The translations under genes and the position numbers were made by a program. A DNA stretch of 61,949 nt, counting the filler. It is 8 parts of 8 records of this genome, joined end to end, with 100 filler letters (N's around TTAATTAATTAA, not from the genome) between each part and the next. Parts side by side here need not be neighbours in the genome. Positions count along the whole stretch, not along the records: positions 1 to 8,789 come from SRR31156797_39499; 7 more parts are not named here. One strand, written 5' to 3'. The notes under the pieces were generated by a model, which had not been told where the DNA came from, did not search any database, and saw nothing but the letters and a program-made list of their open reading frames with translations. Shown one piece after another: positions 1 through 8,789 of this stretch; position 1 is the first letter of the stretch; every line of letters begins with the position of its first letter.

Positions 1-604
1 TGTAGGTGTGGTGAAGTTCGATTGTCTCTCGGCACAGGATGAGGAAAACTACTACGACCACGATATTCCTGTCAGGACCGGTCTTTCAGGTAGTCTCTGT
101 CCCGATCACTTCTTTGTTAGCAATATCGAGGAAGCACTTAAGTGGGCAAAGGACAAGGAGTTCGATTTTCTGATCACGGAGAGTGCCGGTCTTTGCAATC
201 GCTGCTCCCCGCACATCAAGGATGTCCTTGCAATATGTGTGATCGACAACCTGAGCGGAGTAAATACTCCCAAGAAGATCGGGCCCATGCTTAAATTTGC
301 AGATATCATTGTAATTACAAAAGGTGATATCGTCTCCCAAGCAGAGAGAGAAGTATTCGCATACAGGGTCAGGCAGGTCAACCCTGGCGGAAGGATAGTC
401 CATATCAACGGTGTCACCGGACAGGGGGGCTTCTATCTTGCAAAGCTTGTGGAAGGAACATCTTCATTTGATACACTTCAGGGGGCCACACTTCGCTTTA
501 CTATGCCCGGTGCTCTGTGCTCATACTGTCTCGGAGAGAGAAAGATAGGAGATGACAGGCAGATCGGTGTTTCAAAACTTGTGAGTTTCAGAGGAGATGA
601 TTGA
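1..604 (+). CDS. G3E-family (HypB/UreG-like) P-loop GTPase, 5'-truncated
   Basis: ITESAGLCNRCSP, DNLSG and ITKGD (G4-like) motifs, plus a C-terminal CSYC. The frame is open to the window edge. Confidence 0.75.
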   Translation, partial: VGVVKFDCLSAQDEENYYDHDIPVRTGLSGSLCPDHFFVSNIEEALKWAKDKEFDFLITESAGLCNRCSPHIKDVLAICVIDNLSGVNTPKKIGPMLKFADIIVITKGDIVSQAEREVFAYRVRQVNPGGRIVHINGVTGQGGFYLAKLVEGTSSFDTLQGATLRFTMPGALCSYCLGERKIGDDRQIGVSKLVSFRGDD

Positions 605-1618
605 ATGCGAACTGACCTTCTTCAAATGAGCATAGCCGAGCTCATGGAAATGATGCCCTGGCTGGAGGATTACTTCTCCTCGTTTGCGATTGACACAAAA
701 AAGTTTGATGACAGGAAACTGGAAGAGCTGGGTTCGATATTTGGCGATGAATATTTTGAAGAAAAAGGAAGCGACTATCGCAGCTTCATTGATGGTCTTT
801 TCCTCTTCATCGAGCAGGTCAAGACCCTTCAACAGGAAAGCGGTTTCACCGTCAATTCCCTGGTAGTTCTCCCCGGACACAATAAGAATGGCGAGAAGGA
901 AGCTTTTTCCATAGAACTAAAAAAAGGTGAAGTGACTGCAATCGTCGGTCCCACAGGATCTGGAAAATCCCGGCTTCTTGCCGATATAGAATCCCTCGCC
1001 CAAGAGGACACTCCAACAGGCCGCAGAATACTGGTTGATTGCCGAATCCCTGATGATGAAGAACGTTTCTCCACTGAGGGACGCTTAATAGCACAGCTCT
1101 CACAGAACATGAACTTCGTTATGGACCTCAGTGTAGAGGATTTCCTGACCCTGCATGCAGAGAGCCGTATGGTTGATGAAATAGCTCACATTGTCCAGAG
1201 GATTTATGATACAGCGAACGTCCTTGCAGGTGAACCATTCAGCAAAGACACACCTGTCACCCAGCTCTCAGGGGGCCAATCCAGGGCCCTGATGATCGCA
1301 GACACCGCACTCCTGAGCCCCGCACCTGTGGTCCTGATCGACGAGATCGAGAACGCCGGGGTAGACAAAGTGAAGTCACTTGAACTTCTGGTAAGCAATA
1401 ATAAGATCGTCCTGATCAGTACCCACGACCCCCTGCTCGCTCTCTCGGCAGACCAGCGAATTGTGATCAAGAACGGAGGTATTCATAAACTCCTGAAGAC
1501 CACAGCAGATGAGAAAGAACATCTGGAAAGCCTTGAGAAGATAGACAGGAAGATCACGTTTCTGAGGGATAGGTTGAGGAACGGAGAAGAGATTGATCTA
1601 AGTGAGTTGTTGGTGTAA
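605..1618 (+). CDS. ABC-type ATP-binding protein with N-terminal extension; no permease adjacent
   Basis: Walker A GPTGSGKS, signature LSGGQ, Walker B VLIDE and H-loop STHD. Its ATG directly follows the upstream TGA. Confidence 0.85.
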   Translation: MRTDLLQMSIAELMEMMPWLEDYFSSFAIDTKKFDDRKLEELGSIFGDEYFEEKGSDYRSFIDGLFLFIEQVKTLQQESGFTVNSLVVLPGHNKNGEKEAFSIELKKGEVTAIVGPTGSGKSRLLADIESLAQEDTPTGRRILVDCRIPDDEERFSTEGRLIAQLSQNMNFVMDLSVEDFLTLHAESRMVDEIAHIVQRIYDTANVLAGEPFSKDTPVTQLSGGQSRALMIADTALLSPAPVVLIDEIENAGVDKVKSLELLVSNNKIVLISTHDPLLALSADQRIVIKNGGIHKLLKTTADEKEHLESLEKIDRKITFLRDRLRNGEEIDLSELLV

Positions 1619-1700
1619 CTTTGTCTCATTATGCCGATATCATGCCAGTTACCTCTTAAATAGAAAGAAGAAGATATTGTTACTTGGGAGGTCATAATAT

Positions 1701-1886
1701 ATGGCATATAAGTTAGCGTGTAAAGATACGGGGGTTACCTGTCCTTTTGTTGCTCGGGGGGAGACCATGGATGAGATGATGGAAATTGCTGTAAAGCATG
1801 CCAAAGAAGAACATGGTTATACTGACGAACAGCTGAATGAGCCTGAAACTCAAAAGATGATCAAAGAGGCGATCAAACAAGAATAA
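1701..1886 (+). CDS. DUF1059-family small metal-binding protein
   Basis: LACKDTGVTCPF...KHAKEEHG pattern; GGAGGT RBS upstream. Confidence 0.8.
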   Translation: MAYKLACKDTGVTCPFVARGETMDEMMEIAVKHAKEEHGYTDEQLNEPETQKMIKEAIKQE

Positions 1887-2265
1887 CTCAACTGCTGTAA
1901 AATAAAAGGGTATGCTCGTAATAAAGAAGAAGCATCCGAATATAATTTTTTTAATTCAACTTTATTTTTTATGTTCCGCTATTTGTCTCAATTTATGAGA
2001 TGCATCTATCTCATCTTCCCTTCCCAACACTCGTAGTAAAGAAGATTGTACCAGTGAAGAAAATAAGTAGCCATGTGCGAGCCTGATCATGGAAGGTAAT
2101 AATGCTATTCAAGTGCGGACCCGGCATACTCCAAAAGGATGCAAATGAGTTCTGTGCTCTGAATCATCATTGTTCCCATCTACCAGATAGATATATGTGC
2201 AACTTCCTTTCATACTATGATTGTTCAAATCTATTTGAAATTCCATCAGTACAAGGTGAACAAAC

Positions 2266-3342
2266 ATGAATAACGAAAGGAATACAGGGCCATGCTGTTC
2301 AACGAACACCAGCATAGATGAACCTCAGTTTGTCACAATGATAGGTCTTGGTAACAGCCCTGTGCCTGAGATCCATGAGACCACAAGCACCCTCACATTT
2401 AATGACCACCTCGATCACTTTCTTGCTCGATGGGGATTCAGACGTTCAGAACACATCGTAGACCCGGGAATCTATAAACTTGGGAATCCAACTCCAGACT
2501 CTCCGGCATTCGTCTCGGCAAATTACACACTCAGCTTTGATGCACTTCGCAGTTCACTTGAAGGTATCGACTGCTACATCCTTGTCATAGATACGAAAGG
2601 CATCAACGTCTGGTGTGCTGCCGGGAAGGGAACCTTCGGTACCGATGAGATAGTATTCCGCATCAAATTGACAAAACTTGCTGAGATTGTGAACCATCGT
2701 AACATTATCCTGCCACAGCTCGGAGCACCGGGTGTTTCTGCACATGAGGTTAAACGCAGGTCGGGTTTCAGAGTCGAATACGGACCTGTCCTTGCAGGAG
2801 ACTTACCGGAGTACCTCAAGACCAATACAGCGACACCTGATATGAGAAGAATGAGATTCACTTTATGGGACAGGCTGGTGCTCACACCCATAGAGCTTGC
2901 TCATGTGGTCAAGCCAACACTGATAGCTGCGATCATACTTTACCTGCTGGCAGGTCCTTTTGCAGCACTCATTGCAGTCATCACTGCACTTACCGGAACT
3001 GTGCTGTTTCCTGTTCTGCTTCCATTTATCCCGACACATGACTTCAGTACAAAGGGACTCATACTTGGAGGAGTTGTAATGGCTCCATTTGCAGTCACCT
3101 TTGCAACAAGCTCCACGATGCCACTCTGGGAGAACATACTTGCAGCATTGTCGATAATCATGCTCCCCACAGCAGCGATTGCTTATATGGGACTTAACTT
3201 CACAGGGTGCACGACCTATACCTCACGCACCGGTGTCAAGAAAGAGATATTCAGCTATGCACCCTTCATGGCACTCATGGCAGGCACAGGACTGCTGTCC
3301 CTTATCATTCTGGGAATCACACATCTGATGGAGATGATCTGA
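2266..3342 (+). CDS. hgcA: Mercury methylation corrinoid protein HgcA
   Basis: Cap-helix motif GINVWCAAGKGTFG, ANYTLSFD and LPQLGAPGV, a C-terminal multi-TM domain and NFTGCTTYTS. Followed directly by hgcB. Confidence 0.97.
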   Translation: MNNERNTGPCCSTNTSIDEPQFVTMIGLGNSPVPEIHETTSTLTFNDHLDHFLARWGFRRSEHIVDPGIYKLGNPTPDSPAFVSANYTLSFDALRSSLEGIDCYILVIDTKGINVWCAAGKGTFGTDEIVFRIKLTKLAEIVNHRNIILPQLGAPGVSAHEVKRRSGFRVEYGPVLAGDLPEYLKTNTATPDMRRMRFTLWDRLVLTPIELAHVVKPTLIAAIILYLLAGPFAALIAVITALTGTVLFPVLLPFIPTHDFSTKGLILGGVVMAPFAVTFATSSTMPLWENILAALSIIMLPTAAIAYMGLNFTGCTTYTSRTGVKKEIFSYAPFMALMAGTGLLSLIILGITHLMEMI

Positions 3343-3647
3343 TGTTCAATTCGTACAAAGAGAATACGCTTCAATACCATCCTGAGAAATGCATCAACTG
3401 TCTCATGTGTACAAAGGTCTGTCCACATGGAATTTTCACCGAAGGAGAAAAAGGAAAGGGTCATGTGGAGCTCACAGCACCAGAATCCTGTATGGAATGT
3501 GGAGCATGTGCTGGTAACTGTCCGGTGCAGGCCATCGAAGTAGAGAGTGGTGTGGGCTGTGCCTGGGCAATGATTGGTGCAGCACTTAAAGGCAAAGATA
3601 TGGACAGCGATGCGGTCTGTTGCGGAGAGGATGGGTGCTGTCAGTGA
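3342..3647 (+). CDS. hgcB: Mercury methylation 2[4Fe-4S] ferredoxin HgcB (101 aa)
   Basis: ATG overlaps the hgcA stop (TGATG). Has CINCLMCTKVCP, CMECGACAGNCP, GVGCA and a Cys-rich tail CCGEDGCCQ. Confidence 0.95.
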   Translation: MFNSYKENTLQYHPEKCINCLMCTKVCPHGIFTEGEKGKGHVELTAPESCMECGACAGNCPVQAIEVESGVGCAWAMIGAALKGKDMDSDAVCCGEDGCCQ

Positions 3648-3887
3648 AAAACTGCAGGGACATGGCTCTAAAAGCAGGCTTACAGGCGAATACCACAAAA
3701 GGAAAACAGTACCGTGCGCAATCCTTTTATACGAACAAACCTATGTTAGATTGCTTTAAAATCGGATTGTTTTGCTAAACGTATAGGCATTAAATGGCAT
3801 TTACTTAAATTGTAGATTACTATTTTGCATTATGTTTTCAGCTTACTCAGTATTTTAGGCTTAAATTGAAAAGGACGTATATTTAAA

Positions 3888-4094
3888 ATGTTCAACAACA
3901 GAGAAGAATCCACAGCGCCAGTAGATGCCGGCGAAACATACGACGTAACAATTGAAGATATCGCAAGAGAAGGCGACGGAATTGCAAGAGTAAGCGGTTT
4001 CGTAATTTTCGTCCCAGGTACATCCGTAGGCGACGAAGTAACCATCAAAGTAACAAAGGTTCTCAGAAAGTTCGCATTCGGTGAAGTAGCATAA
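3888..4094 (+). CDS. Single TRAM-domain RNA chaperone
   Basis: APVDAGETYDVTIEDIAREGDGIARVSGFVIFVP...KFAFGEV, typical of Methanosarcinales single-TRAM proteins. Confidence 0.92.
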   Translation: MFNNREESTAPVDAGETYDVTIEDIAREGDGIARVSGFVIFVPGTSVGDEVTIKVTKVLRKFAFGEVA

Positions 4095-4353
4095 TACTAC
4101 TTCACTTTTTTCGAAGTATCCCGTGATATTTCAATATTTTTAAGTTAACTATTTTATAGAAAATCAACTTTAACCAGCTTTTCCTTTCATAAAATGCTTT
4201 TTCCAATACCTCTGGTTAGAACTTTAAGTATGCTGAAGTCTGACCATCACGGCAGAATTGCCAGAATAAGATGTTCAGGAAACAAAACAGAAGAAAAGTT
4301 AAAATATCAATTTAAAATAGTAGTTTTAAAAAAGGTGAATCATAAGATCCACC

Positions 4354-4689
4354 TTATTTCAGGAATCCCTTCCTATCCAACCAGTTTACCTGTGGACGTG
4401 TGTATTTCCATATAACATCGGCTTTTGAATCCTGAATTTCCCATGGAGTAGCGATAACGATATCGCCTTCACGGACCCACATTCTCTTTTTCTTTGAACC
4501 TGGAATCCTGCCCATACGGACAACTCCGTCCATACATTGCAGTCTTACCCTGTTTGCTCCAAGCAAACTGGAAACTGTTGCCAGAACCTCACCATTCTCT
4601 TTACGAGGGGTTCTCACCCTGACAACTTCTCCATCAGTGTTTCCACCGCTTGCATTACTTTTTCTTTTATTACTTCTATAATTAGCCAG
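4354..4689 (-). CDS. eif1a: Archaeal translation initiation factor aIF-1A, probable CTG start (111 aa)
   Basis: [26 protein letters not shown] core. The frame extends 24 codons upstream of the GTG at 4617 to CTG-GCT-AAT-TAT-AGA, 7 nt after GAGG. Confidence 0.9.
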
Positions 4690-5004
4690 ATTAATTCCTC
4701 GGAGTGTTAAATATTATTAAATGTTATCATTAGTACTTTATTCAGAAAAATGGATATTTTGTATAATGTTGTTATATTGTTACAACACTAAAATATCCAA
4801 TTCAGATAAAACAAAATTTTGCCATTGCCCATTACTGAAAAAATAATGTTTTACCAGTATCTGTATGCATCATTGTTTCTATTCTATAAGAGAAACTCAA
4901 ACTATATAATATGTATCGTATGAATATAGGGAATTTCAGGAATTGCCGGAGTTATAAGGCTTTTCGGCAATGATTTTCCTGATATTTCCCTTTACCAGAT
5001 CATA

Positions 5005-6297
5005 TTACTTTTTGTCAGAGAGCATTATCTTGACAAGACCCGCAGCAACATCCATTGATGTACAGTCCTCATCAAGCATCTGTTCCACCCAGTGAATGTA
5101 TTTGCCAAGATGTCCCTCATCAATGGTTTCCTTTACCTTCTTTGCAAGCATATTGGCCTTGAAATCCTCAGCATCGCTTCTGGTAGGTATCTTACGGCAC
5201 TGTATCTTTGTCTTGGTGTACTTCTGGATACTCTTGATCTTATAGATCTCCTTTGGAGTGACAAAGGTGAATGCCATTCCCTGTCTTCCTGCACGTCCCG
5301 TCCTCCCGATCCTGTGGACATAGGATTCCTCATCCTGTGGCATATCGAAATTGAATACTACCTCGATATTCTCTACATCAATTCCACGGGCTGCCACATC
5401 TGTAGCTACAAGGGTCTCGATCTCGCCTTTTCTGAAGCTTCCCATTACCTTTTCCCTATGGTTCTGCTTCATATCACCGTGAAGACCATCTGCAAGGTAA
5501 CCCCTTGCTTTAAGAGTAGCAACAAGCTCATCCACCATCTTTTTGGTATTACAGAACACAAGGGATGATTTAACATCATGGATATCAATCATCCTGCAAA
5601 GGACATCCGTTTTCATGTGATATTTTACTTCGAAATATGCCTGTTCCATATTTGGAACAGTAACCACCTTATGGATAGTTTTTACAAGTTCAGGATTCTG
5701 CTGATATCTCTTCGTAAGCTTCATTATTGGCTTTGGCATTGTAGCTGAGAAGAGAATGGTCTGCCTTTCTTCGGGAGCACTGCTAAGGATACTTTCGATA
5801 TCCTCTCTGAATCCCATATCAAGCATCTCATCAGCCTCATCCAGAACGACCATTTCAAGAGCATCCAGTTTTAATGTTCTGCGCTCTATGTGGTCAATTA
5901 CCCTTCCAGGGGTACCGATTACAATCTGCACACCCCTTCTGAGAGCCTTTATCTGCCTATCAATATTCTGTCCGCCATATACAGGTAGTATCTTGGTCCC
6001 TGTATATTTACCAAGTTTACCCATTTCCTCTGCAACCTGGTTTGCAAGTTCCCTTGTAGGACAGAGTACAAGCACCTGGGTCTTCTTGCTTCTGGCATTA
6101 ATCATTTCAAGAGCTGGTATACCAAATGATGCAGTCTTACCTGTACCTGTCTGGGCCTGACCAATGACATCCCTGCCTTCAAGAATAAAAGGGATAGACT
6201 TGGACTGGATTGGAGTGGGTTCTTCAAAACCCAGGTCAGTTATTGCTTTTTCTATATTACGTGATAATTGAAGGTCTTTAAAAGTTGATGATTCCAT
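5005..6297 (-). CDS. deaD: DEAD-box RNA helicase (DeaD/CsdA-like, short C-terminus)
   Basis: Q motif, AQTGTGKT, PTRELA, DEAD, SAT, ARGID and HRIGRTGR. Start set at MESSTF. Confidence 0.93.
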   Translation of the reverse strand: MESSTFKDLQLSRNIEKAITDLGFEEPTPIQSKSIPFILEGRDVIGQAQTGTGKTASFGIPALEMINARSKKTQVLVLCPTRELANQVAEEMGKLGKYTGTKILPVYGGQNIDRQIKALRRGVQIVIGTPGRVIDHIERRTLKLDALEMVVLDEADEMLDMGFREDIESILSSAPEERQTILFSATMPKPIMKLTKRYQQNPELVKTIHKVVTVPNMEQAYFEVKYHMKTDVLCRMIDIHDVKSSLVFCNTKKMVDELVATLKARGYLADGLHGDMKQNHREKVMGSFRKGEIETLVATDVAARGIDVENIEVVFNFDMPQDEESYVHRIGRTGRAGRQGMAFTFVTPKEIYKIKSIQKYTKTKIQCRKIPTRSDAEDFKANMLAKKVKETIDEGHLGKYIHWVEQMLDEDCTSMDVAAGLVKIMLSDKK

Positions 6298-6747
6298 AGT
6301 AATAGTTCCTGTGATTATGTGACCATAATGCAAAACATAAGATGAAATACATCATCGAGATCTGTTTCCAATTTGGCCCTGTTTAAGAATAAATGTTCCA
6401 AATTGTTTTGGTAATACAAAACAAAAAAGAGCAGTGCTTTAGTAATAGCAACAATAGAGTTAAGTCTGTCGGTGATAAGGACGAGCAAGCTGGTAATCCT
6501 GCCAAGTCTAAGAGCCGGAGAAGTCAGTCCACATTAGAATTCTTAAGATCCACCTATACACCTGTTATGTTTTGGGATAACTAAAGAAGAAGATCATAGC
6601 TAATTTATATATAAAAAGAGAACAGTGGGCTTTATGGGAGTCTTTGTCATTACCTGTAGGTTTACAAACAGGATATCCCATGAACAAATGTTCAATGAAA
6701 TTTAAACAACTTCACCAAGCATTTTGGGAAATAAGGAGAAATAAATT

Positions 6748-7071
6748 ATGTCAGAGTGGATAGTTGCAATGAAAGATGTTGATCTGAAAGAAGAGAAGAT
6801 AAAAGTTATTAAAGCAGAGAACAAACAAATCGCTCTTGTAAGGAAAGGCGATGGTATCTTTGCACTTCTGAATGTGTGCCCGCATGCAGGGTGTCCTCTT
6901 AAGAACGGAAGCCTGGAAGAGTACACACTCAAATGTGCCTGCCATAACTGGGGATTTGACATTCGAACCGGGGAGAATGTTGATACCGGGGAATACATTG
7001 ATATGGAAGATCCAAGTGTGGACATCTTTGAGACAAGGATCGAAGATGGTAATATAGAAATACTTGTCTGA
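6748..7071 (+). CDS. Rieske [2Fe-2S] ferredoxin-like protein
   Basis: CPH...CACH ligand pattern; AAGGAG RBS. Confidence 0.85.
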   Translation: MSEWIVAMKDVDLKEEKIKVIKAENKQIALVRKGDGIFALLNVCPHAGCPLKNGSLEEYTLKCACHNWGFDIRTGENVDTGEYIDMEDPSVDIFETRIEDGNIEILV

Positions 7072-7485
7072 AGCTGAAAACCACAACAGTATGAGGTGCA
7101 AATCCTCATACCAATGACCATTTTACTATGGCCATAGTAAATACTAGGATGCTGTGGTTATAAACAGATGTGTAATATATATATCAGTGGGAAATTAATT
7201 TTTCTGGAATAATCAATTAACAGTTTAGCATCATTTCTCCTATTGTCAAATCTGAATTGTAATACTTCAATAGAAATATCATTCTCAAACCTGAATGTCT
7301 TAGTTACCCTAAATAATAGTACTTTAGAGCTGTATTTGACAATTTGCACTAATTTTCCTACATTTTATTAATAGCAAAAGGCCAGAGGTGTAAAATATAC
7401 AAAAACATAGATATATGTGCAATTTATAAACAATTAAGAGATGGTGCTTATTACGCATACGATGCAAATCCTGTATTCAGGTTGA

Positions 7486-7995
7486 TTGAAATTTCGAGGT
7501 GAACAATTGTACAAATTATTTGAAGAGCAAAGAGCAATATCTCCTGTCATAGGTACTATCATGATGGTAGTCATAGCTGTCATTCTTACAGGAGTTATTT
7601 TTGCAGTTATAGGCCCAGATCCTATTAGAAGCGCTCCCCAGGCAGATATTAGGGCAGTAGGTCATAGCATTGGCTCCGATATGGTTATTGAGATAATGCA
7701 TCAGGGTGGAGAGGAACTATCATTCACTGAAGCACGCACAAAGATAATTATTTCAGGTAGTTCGAACGCTAATGGAACTGTATCTTTCTCAAACCTTGTC
7801 ACCGAAAGCGAAAGGAAGTTTGCTACTGGAGATTCACTCTACCTGTACATTGCAGGTGGTGATGCATGCATTGGCAACAGCACTCTTCCAAATGCTGACC
7901 ATACTGATATCGCGCAAAGTAGTGAAACAGTTGAGATCAAGGTCCTTGATGTCAACAGCCAGCAACTAATAGCAGATATCAGCGCCAGGTTCTAA
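7486..7995 (+). CDS. Archaeal type IV pilin-like protein (class III signal peptide)
   Basis: RA/ISPVIGTIMMVVIAVIL cleavage and hydrophobic motif; downstream HQGGE. Confidence 0.85.
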   Translation: MKFRGEQLYKLFEEQRAISPVIGTIMMVVIAVILTGVIFAVIGPDPIRSAPQADIRAVGHSIGSDMVIEIMHQGGEELSFTEARTKIIISGSSNANGTVSFSNLVTESERKFATGDSLYLYIAGGDACIGNSTLPNADHTDIAQSSETVEIKVLDVNSQQLIADISARF

Positions 7996-8008
7996 GAATC
8001 AGCAACGT

Positions 8009-8764
8009 TTATTTATTTGTGTTCTTCTGGAAAATGAAGAACGCATAGCCATATTCATCAGAGTGTTCTTTGAAGACCTCTAGCTCTTTTCTGGAAAAAG
8101 CGATTATCATTTCAGCTTCCGTGTTCCCTTTGTAATTCTCAGCGATGGCATCCAGTCTTTTTTCAAGAGGAAGGTAGTAGTCATCCAGCCAGGCAGAATC
8201 CGGCAGTTTAAAGCATTCAATGATATCATATCCTGCTGCAGTGATCATTTTTTCAGTGTAGGGAATGCTCTTGATATCAGGATAACTTTCCTGCCATAAT
8301 TGAAGCGCTTCCTGAGAGGGTTCATCCTTGAACCATGTTGCTTCAGTAAGTGCCATATACCCGCCATCTTTCAGGAATCTTTTCCAGTACGAAAGCCCTT
8401 TTTCAAAACCTATTACAAAAATTGAACCTTCTGCCCATATGACATCAAATTCCCCGTCTTCAAACGGAAGATCATCCATGGAAGCACAAACTGTGCTTAT
8501 TCTATCATCCAGTCCTTCTTTTACTGCGTTTATCATCAGTTTGTCCAGAAATGGCCGGTAAATGTCAGTTGCAGTGATATGACAGTTTTTGCAGATTTTT
8601 GCAAGATGGATCGTCTGCATTCCCACACCACAGCCAATATCAAGGATCTTTGCTCCCTGTGGAACAGAAGGTATTGCCCTGAAAGCTTTTTCAGTGCTTT
8701 CATTATTACCTGGACCCTGTCTGGGCAATCCTTCAAATATCTCAAAAATAGGTGATTCGTCCAT
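8009..8764 (-). CDS. Class I SAM-dependent methyltransferase
   Basis: ILDIGCGVG motif I; FDVIWAEGS. Confidence 0.9.
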   Translation of the reverse strand: MDESPIFEIFEGLPRQGPGNNESTEKAFRAIPSVPQGAKILDIGCGVGMQTIHLAKICKNCHITATDIYRPFLDKLMINAVKEGLDDRISTVCASMDDLPFEDGEFDVIWAEGSIFVIGFEKGLSYWKRFLKDGGYMALTEATWFKDEPSQEALQLWQESYPDIKSIPYTEKMITAAGYDIIECFKLPDSAWLDDYYLPLEKRLDAIAENYKGNTEAEMIIAFSRKELEVFKEHSDEYGYAFFIFQKNTNK

Positions 8765-8789
8765 GTAGATTTTTCATTTTGATTAGAAT

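Follow-up and report, generated by a model that had tools for sequence, protein, structure and literature searches.

Weak start signals on the genes of initiation factors have been described in two domains, and the accessible text of PMC3326321 treats infC and eIF1 as precedents for weak-start autoregulation of such factors. The archaeal aIF-1A gene described here resembles infC: both are genes of initiation factors in which a very weak near-cognate start codon, placed behind a good Shine-Dalgarno (SD) sequence, has been conserved. A few aIF-1A lineages actually use ATT or ATC (L218 and L230). A further likeness is proposed below, namely that the factor would raise stringency and in this way lower its own initiation, as the accessible text of PMC3326321 describes for infC. 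There are also differences. aIF-1A is a homolog of bacterial IF1 and not of the fidelity factor IF3, its start codon is mainly CUG whereas that of infC is AUU, and feedback was shown experimentally for infC whereas aIF-1A is known here from sequence comparison. To our knowledge, IF3 has no archaeal homolog.

The likeness to eIF1 lies in a conserved suboptimal start on the gene of a start-selection factor, an arrangement that the accessible part of the literature reads as a stringency homeostat. However, eIF1, like the cross-regulation through the upstream open reading frame of eIF5, depends on scanning and Kozak context and keeps AUG, whereas aIF-1A has a non-AUG codon positioned by an SD sequence. 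The archaeal homolog of eIF1, aIF1, differs as well in having a normal ATG start.

In their accessible parts, two reviews list AUG, GUG, and UUG as the only archaeal start codons, and the accessible text of a ribosome profiling (Ribo-seq) study of M. mazei gives ATG as the start of 79% of the longer genes (PMC11456600). No description of a CUG or CTG start of archaeal aIF1A was found in the full-text literature within our coverage, which lies outside most subscription journals and supplements.

The aIF-1A gene and its upstream region

The window is the whole stretch of DNA that was presented for analysis, 61,949 nucleotides with filler included. The stretch analysed here lies within its SRR31156797_39499 part (positions 1 to 8,789), and all positions are window coordinates on the minus strand. 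The features are as follows.

4354 to 4689, minus strand: aIF-1A coding sequence, 111 codons from CTG, with a TAA stop at 4356-4354 (translation and profile matches)
4687 to 4689, minus strand: CTG, almost certainly the initiation codon (window sequence and aligned relatives)
4690 to 4696, minus strand: 7-nt A/T-rich spacer AATTAAT between the SD and CTG (sequence)
4697 to 4700, minus strand: Shine-Dalgarno core GAGG (sequence and conservation in relatives)
4714 to 4716, minus strand: nearest in-frame upstream stop, TAA, with a second TAA at 4719-4717
4693 to 4695, minus strand: ATT, the other near-cognate codon in the open frame, 1 nt after GAGG; rejected as a start
4615 to 4617, minus strand: internal GTG, the codon of Val25 in RVRTP and the first canonical start; not accepted as the site of initiation
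4903 to 4913, minus strand: promoter-like element CATATTATATA, conserved upstream of CTG, a candidate TATA box by its putative function
4690 to 4880, minus strand: putative 5' leader of about 190 nt with conserved blocks, its 5' end predicted from the TATA position
5005 to 6333, minus strand: upstream neighbor open reading frame with a DEAD motif (VLDEADEML in translation), context only

From 4716 downward the minus strand reads TAA TAT TTA ACA CTC CGA GGA ATT AAT CTG GCT AAT TAT AGA AGT. This is the arrangement GAGG-AATTAAT-CTG GCT AAT TAT AGA AGT that a preliminary description had picked out. Its two further readings, an in-frame TAA nine codons upstream of the CTG (4716-4714) and the absence of ATG, GTG, or TTG before the internal GTG at 4617, which encodes the V inside RVRTP, were also borne out. 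The near-cognate codons between the upstream TAA and RVRTP are the ATT (4695-4693) and the CTG alone. When open reading frames with canonical starts were listed, the sole one was that of 87 amino acids from the GTG at 4617 (the V of R-V-R-T-P).

The 111-residue product from CTG is a clear member of the aIF-1A family. It matched Pfam PF01176, the S1-like eIF-1a domain (69.1 bits versus a cut-off of 30.2, E 2.6e-19, residues 33-95), and NCBIfam NF003085 (171.8 bits versus a cut-off of 92, residues 8-111, starting at profile position 5 of 108). The CTG-initiated product also scored 131.1 bits against NCBIfam TIGR00523 (cut-off 102.9). Matches in the PDB were to the M. jannaschii aIF1A 1JT8 (E 5.1e-35, residues 21-110) and to P. 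abyssi aIF1A in 30S complexes (5JB3 chain 6, E 2.6e-21), and like these proteins it belongs to the aIF1A/eIF1A family. Family membership suggests that the window aIF-1A would bind the A site of the small subunit and have a role in initiation. The Methanosarcinaceae form differs from 1JT8 in carrying a basic N-terminal tail of about 20 residues (2-20) ahead of the aligned region. This tail presumably resembles that of eukaryotic eIF1A. The window aIF-1A shares 97% identity with the M. bombayensis locus, and judged by this identity the window is a Methanolobus.

The neighboring open reading frame with the DEAD motif ends 315 nt before the CTG, and therefore there is no overlap or coupling with aIF-1A. 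The window (4913-4903) and all 12 of the closest loci share a block CAT-N-TTATATA located 209-226 nt before the CTG. If this block is a TATA box, the leader would be about 190 nt long. The predicted leader contains the conserved blocks TTTTTCAGTAA, GTTTTATTTGAATTGG, and TTTGAATAAAGCAGGAATAAAA, the last of which might instead be a second, proximal promoter. The consensus fold of 13 leader sequences was weak (-7.76 kcal/mol, with compensatory changes in 4 of 25 pairs) and gave no convincing conserved structure in the predicted leader. No Rfam family matched positions 4200-5100 at E up to 1, and a promoter and terminator scan, of a bacterial type ill-suited to archaea, found nothing above chance. 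An upstream open reading frame of 13 codons, beginning with ATG, in the window leader was dropped as a candidate, being absent by eye from L001. The 111 nt around the start had a z score of +1.66, with 190 of 200 shuffled sequences folding at least as well. The start region thus folds worse than its shuffles, which indicates an open initiation region.

Start codons of aIF-1A across the Halobacteriota

The family set consisted of the best 80 of 240 confirmed loci from a scan of species-representative genomes, all of them Methanosarcinaceae. Aligning the nucleotide starts of these orthologs, a check that the preliminary description had suggested, gave CTG at the codon aligned to the window CTG in 65 of the 80 loci (best of 240), TTG in 13, and ATG in 2. 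An ATG at this position in close orthologs, which the preliminary description had named as refuting the CTG start, was not seen: the 12 closest Methanolobus loci (89-97% identity) all keep CTG. Among the same 80 loci (best of 240), GAGG occupies positions -11 to -8 in 71, and spacer positions -6, -5, -3, and -2 are conserved in 72-78. Codons 2-6 (Ala-Asn-Tyr-Arg-Ser) vary almost only synonymously in this set (80 loci, best of 240), and the third base of the Ala GCN codon next to the start is T in 40, A in 28, G in 7, and C in 5. Because this neighboring four-fold site is scrambled while the first base of the start stays C, the conservation of CTG is not due to chance. No conserved upstream frame was found in these Methanosarcinaceae loci (best 80 of 240).

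Paralogs share the feature. Four Methanosarcinaceae genomes (G001-G004) hold 2, 2, 4, and 2 PF01176 genes, and all 10 start with a non-ATG codon (9 CTG and 1 TTG), each 7 nt after GAGG, so that the non-ATG start is common to paralogs with widely differing N-terminal tails. Four aIF-1A paralogs are carried by each of G003 and G127, and another Methanosarcinaceae assembly, G174, has five (L267, L271, L275, L278, and L279). A genome-wide switch to ATG, hinted at by two ATG loci of G174 (L034 and L075), was ruled out, since this genome has 3 ATG and 2 CTG copies.

The survey was extended over the phylum Halobacteriota. The order search covered 61 genomes of the same GTDB order, 60 of which had a match; 73 matches were listed and 30 loci were read. 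CTG was the start in 29 of the 30 loci read (of 73 matches listed), 4-7 nt after GAGGTG, and ATG in 1. At many of these loci an in-frame TGA overlaps the SD (T-GAGGTG), leaving three codons before the CTG. Other orders carry an extended SD form, GAGGTGAT.

The phylum search covered 121 genomes, all but one with a match, and gave 193 matches, 150 of them listed. Starts were called for 110 gene copies from 98 genomes (30 loci plus 80 regions) of the 193 matches. The rule for calling starts was our own. It sought the longest substring of the SD consensus at an aligned spacing of 4-9, and the start had to precede the conserved Lys30 by 9 codons or more. The rule was overridden manually for 14 of the 110 phylum-level copies and for 6 family-level loci. 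The calls for the phylum-level copies were as follows.

CTG: 65 of 110 (about 60%)
CTG or ATG: 1 of 110 (L189, with an in-frame ATG also four codons upstream)
TTG: 17 of 110
ATG: 17 of 110, 13 of them high-GC
GTG: 4 of 110, one doubtful
ATT or ATC: 3 of 110, one doubtful
Frameshifted: 2 of 110 (L224 and L229)
Unclear: 1 of 110 (L187, CAG at the start position)

These results strongly support the earlier suggestion that aIF-1A starts at a noncanonical CTG, and they extend its reach far beyond what had been supposed. A stop codon, TAA or TGA, immediately precedes the CTG in L214, L226, L227, L231, and L232, and the CTG is therefore the first sense codon of the frame at these five loci. The distance from stop to CTG is just three codons in 44 CTG-called loci. 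Among 157 automatic CTG calls, the aligned SD spacing was most often 7 nt (104 calls), followed by 4 nt (39), 8 nt (13), and 9 nt (1). After the sets were pooled and identical protein-plus-label duplicates removed, 215 distinct copies remained, of which 211 had a label: CTG in 157, TTG in 27, ATG in 20, GTG in 4, and ATT or ATC in 3. The start was thus non-ATG in 191 of the 211 labelled copies, with CTG in 157 versus TTG plus GTG in 31. At least 23 changes of start state are required on a FastTree tree of the pooled copies.

Several copies stand apart. In a clade with the SD variant GGAGTTGAT, L218 has ATT (right after TGA), L230 has ATC, and L228 possibly has ATT; these ATT and ATC starts are infC-like, and sister copies have CTG or ATG at the start position. 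L224 and L229 are second copies of aIF-1A that are out of frame with the SD-CTG, the former with a 19-nt tandem duplication just past the start and the latter with the shift between its KVRLP motif and the domain. Both may be pseudogenes or assembly errors. The paralog L187 has CAG where its relatives have CTG (GAGGTGTTTTT-CAG), with no other obvious start in frame.

Lineage names, which are putative and given for context only, were those of the taxa attached to identical aIF1 proteins in an exact-sequence look-up.

CTG or TTG: Methanoculleus (G095)
CTG or TTG: Methanoregula (G114), with one CTG copy and one ATG copy
CTG or TTG: Methanocalculus (G085)
CTG or TTG: Archaeoglobaceae (G066, G096, and G086)
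CTG or TTG: G076, its own protein unnamed, the members of its 90% cluster named Archaeoglobus profundus
CTG or TTG: Ferroglobus and Geoglobus (G106 and G115)
CTG or TTG: Methanocellales (G117, G079, G108, and G089)
CTG or TTG: an SCG archaeon (G084)
ATG: Halobacterium (G118)
ATG: Haloferax (G081)
ATG: Methanohalarchaeum (G094, single copy, L193)

In 13 of the 17 ATG copies among the 110 phylum-level copies the GC content of the locus is at least 0.57, and these are of the haloarchaeal type. A TATA-like element starts 29-34 nt before the ATG in 12 of these 13, which implies a leaderless mRNA for the 12 copies. Because the high-GC ATG copies look leaderless, the non-AUG start appears to accompany SD-led mRNAs and to be lost with the SD. 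The low-GC ATG copies mostly share a genome with a weak-start copy, the mixed genomes being the following.

G033: ATG and CTG
G127: ATG, 2 CTG, and TTG
G174: 3 ATG and 2 CTG
G114: ATG and CTG
G122: ATG and ATC

CTG as the site of initiation

Comparison of these loci leaves little room for doubt that CTG is the aIF-1A initiation codon. ATG, TTG, GTG, ATT, and ATC swap in at the same codon, which is evidence that this position is the start. As a control, the aIF1 gene (SUI1, PF01253) was surveyed at 34 loci (4 plus 30 of 68 matches in 61 genomes). Its start was ATG in 30 of the 34, with 4 ambiguous loci from one clade that most likely use GTG, and in none of the 34 aIF1 loci from the same phylum was CTG required as the start. 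The CTG start is thus peculiar to aIF-1A and reflects neither these genomes in general nor the method of calling starts. The ambiguous aIF1 loci (L237, L241, L242, and L260) have no ATG near the zinc knuckle; their start is probably the GTG 11 nt after GGAGG, and the codon upstream varies among ATG, TTG, AAG, and CTG.

It is very unlikely that translation instead begins at the ATT at 4695, at the GTG at 4617, or at another codon on a short or leaderless transcript, with the CTG encoding leucine. The disagreement among annotations would fit such a start, many of the 120 best database representatives being extended far upstream or cut back to an internal Met, and a further promoter might lie in an A/T-rich block that is conserved 24-45 nt before the CTG. 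However, stops interrupt the upstream frames at differing positions, in some loci right before the CTG, and ATG or TTG substitutes for CTG at exactly that codon. The individual candidates were rejected. ATT at 4695-4693 lies 1 nt after GAGG, and its position is GTT, TTT, or TCG in other families. The GTG at 4617, which the preliminary description had named as the other place to which the N-terminus might map, is GTA in L087 and GTC in L084, and it falls within the region aligned to 1JT8. Where some Methanosarcina have Met8, other sequences have Ile, Val, Leu, Lys, Asn, or Thr. More improbable still is initiation at the CUG by a leucine tRNA in place of initiator Met-tRNA, giving a Leu N-terminus. 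Decoding by leucine tRNA has been reported for some eukaryotic CUG starts, and at aIF-1A CTG is favored over TTG and GTG; nothing specific points to it. The substitutes ATG, TTG, GTG, ATT, and ATC are the near-cognate set of the initiator anticodon CAU and not of a Leu anticodon.

A weak start and its possible function

Probably the weak start has been selected for its function. One base change would give ATG, GTG, or TTG, which argues that the weak codon is kept by selection, and the first base of the start has long been held as C or another non-A base, which likewise points to selection for a weak start.

How such a start might act can be outlined. The SD, at optimal spacing, would position the 30S pre-initiation complex on the CUG, and initiator Met-tRNA would pair with it with a mismatch at the first codon base. 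The product would be Met-Ala-Asn-Tyr-Arg-Ser..., with the Met most likely removed. In the proofreading state induced by aIF1 the CUG complex would presumably be rejected more readily. Abundant factors would then mean more rejection of the CUG and less aIF-1A made. Following the preliminary description, we propose tentatively, as a reading that falls just short of an even chance, that the weak CUG start works as negative feedback on aIF-1A, modelled on infC and eIF1. The analogy is a reasonable one and agrees with how deeply the weak start is conserved. Both the sensitivity of this CUG to stringency and the direction of the feedback are presumed.

Toeprints with P. abyssi components bear on the direction. 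In the accessible text of PMC6237735, addition of aIF1A to aIF1 made the complex more dynamic and reinforced destabilization, and therefore, with aIF1 present, excess aIF1A should cut initiation at its own CUG. Without aIF1, aIF1A stabilized initiator tRNA in the P. abyssi system according to the same accessible text (PMC6237735), and because of this the sign of any aIF1A effect is uncertain. The aIF-1A CTG is at an SD distance typical of an efficient start; for comparison, that text gives the leader of P. abyssi aEF1A as GGAGGUGAU-UUAA-AUG (PMC6237735). Two observations weigh against feedback: aIF1, the main factor in fidelity, starts at an ordinary ATG, and the Halobacteria and G094 (L193) manage with ATG alone.

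A somewhat less likely alternative is that the CUG is the true start and acts as a fixed attenuator, with a low, constant rate, a strong SD, and an open leader, and with no feedback from aIF1A or aIF1. The conservation data fit selection for low output equally well. Furthermore, TTG, GTG, ATT, and ATC substitute for CTG, so that "not AUG" may be all that matters, and ATG and CTG copies coexist in some genomes. However, a weaker SD or promoter would have been an easier route to low output, and the SD stays strong and optimally spaced. CTG is also preferred over the commoner weak starts TTG and GTG (157 versus 31 of 211), and the gene encodes part of the codon-reading machinery, as in the two known cases of feedback. 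It is unlikely that the CUG start senses some other input, such as aIF1 activity, free 30S subunits, the supply of initiator tRNA, temperature, or stress, which would be cross-regulation that holds aIF1A in step with its partners and not autoregulation. The accessible literature on Sulfolobus reports that aIF1 rejects noncanonical starts, changes in complex stability of any kind generally affect near-cognate starts, and a conserved leader of about 190 nt could bear further signals; against this, the leader has neither a conserved structure nor an Rfam match.

Taking negative feedback as the working model, the Halobacteriota may carry an ancient stringency homeostat on aIF-1A through an SD-positioned CUG, lost where mRNAs are leaderless. 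We advance this broader proposal with some reserve, as a plausible reading rather than the expected one. If it is true, the CUG start predates the divergence of the Archaeoglobales, Methanomicrobiales, Methanocellales, and Methanosarcinales, and the level of aIF-1A would be governed by the stringency with which near-cognate codons are rejected in the pre-initiation complex. Weak-start feedback would then be known from three independent cases, with the IF1/eIF1A lineage represented for the first time. The homeostat would also make aIF1A, the homolog of IF1 and eIF1A and a universally conserved A-site factor, itself a determinant of fidelity. If the feedback is real, all three domains would have reached the same control logic on different factors. 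The feedback is directly testable with existing Methanosarcina genetics and the P. abyssi in vitro systems, and the CUG start of aIF-1A offers a ready-made reporter of initiation stringency. A CUG start kept on an essential factor, in several orders and almost all paralogs, would illustrate functional CUG initiation in Archaea more clearly than any other natural example.

The start also bears on annotation. At least 4 different aIF-1A N-termini stand in current databases and could be corrected. M-ANYRS is the N-terminus of 27 of the 120 best database cluster representatives, in agreement with the statement in the preliminary description that Methanosarcina orthologs begin MANYRS, and a literal L-ANYRS is that of 12. 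Extensions of up to 60 residues upstream, through the SD, occur in about 29 of the 120, and many have been shortened to an internal Met (MRKRREG..). Because the start is CTG, these disagreeing N-termini amount to a systematic annotation error. One M-ANYRS record is the NCBI protein of M. psychrotolerans, the DNA of which (L009) has CTG, and the CTG codon is already taken as the start of the protein (MANYRS) in some RefSeq and other entries.
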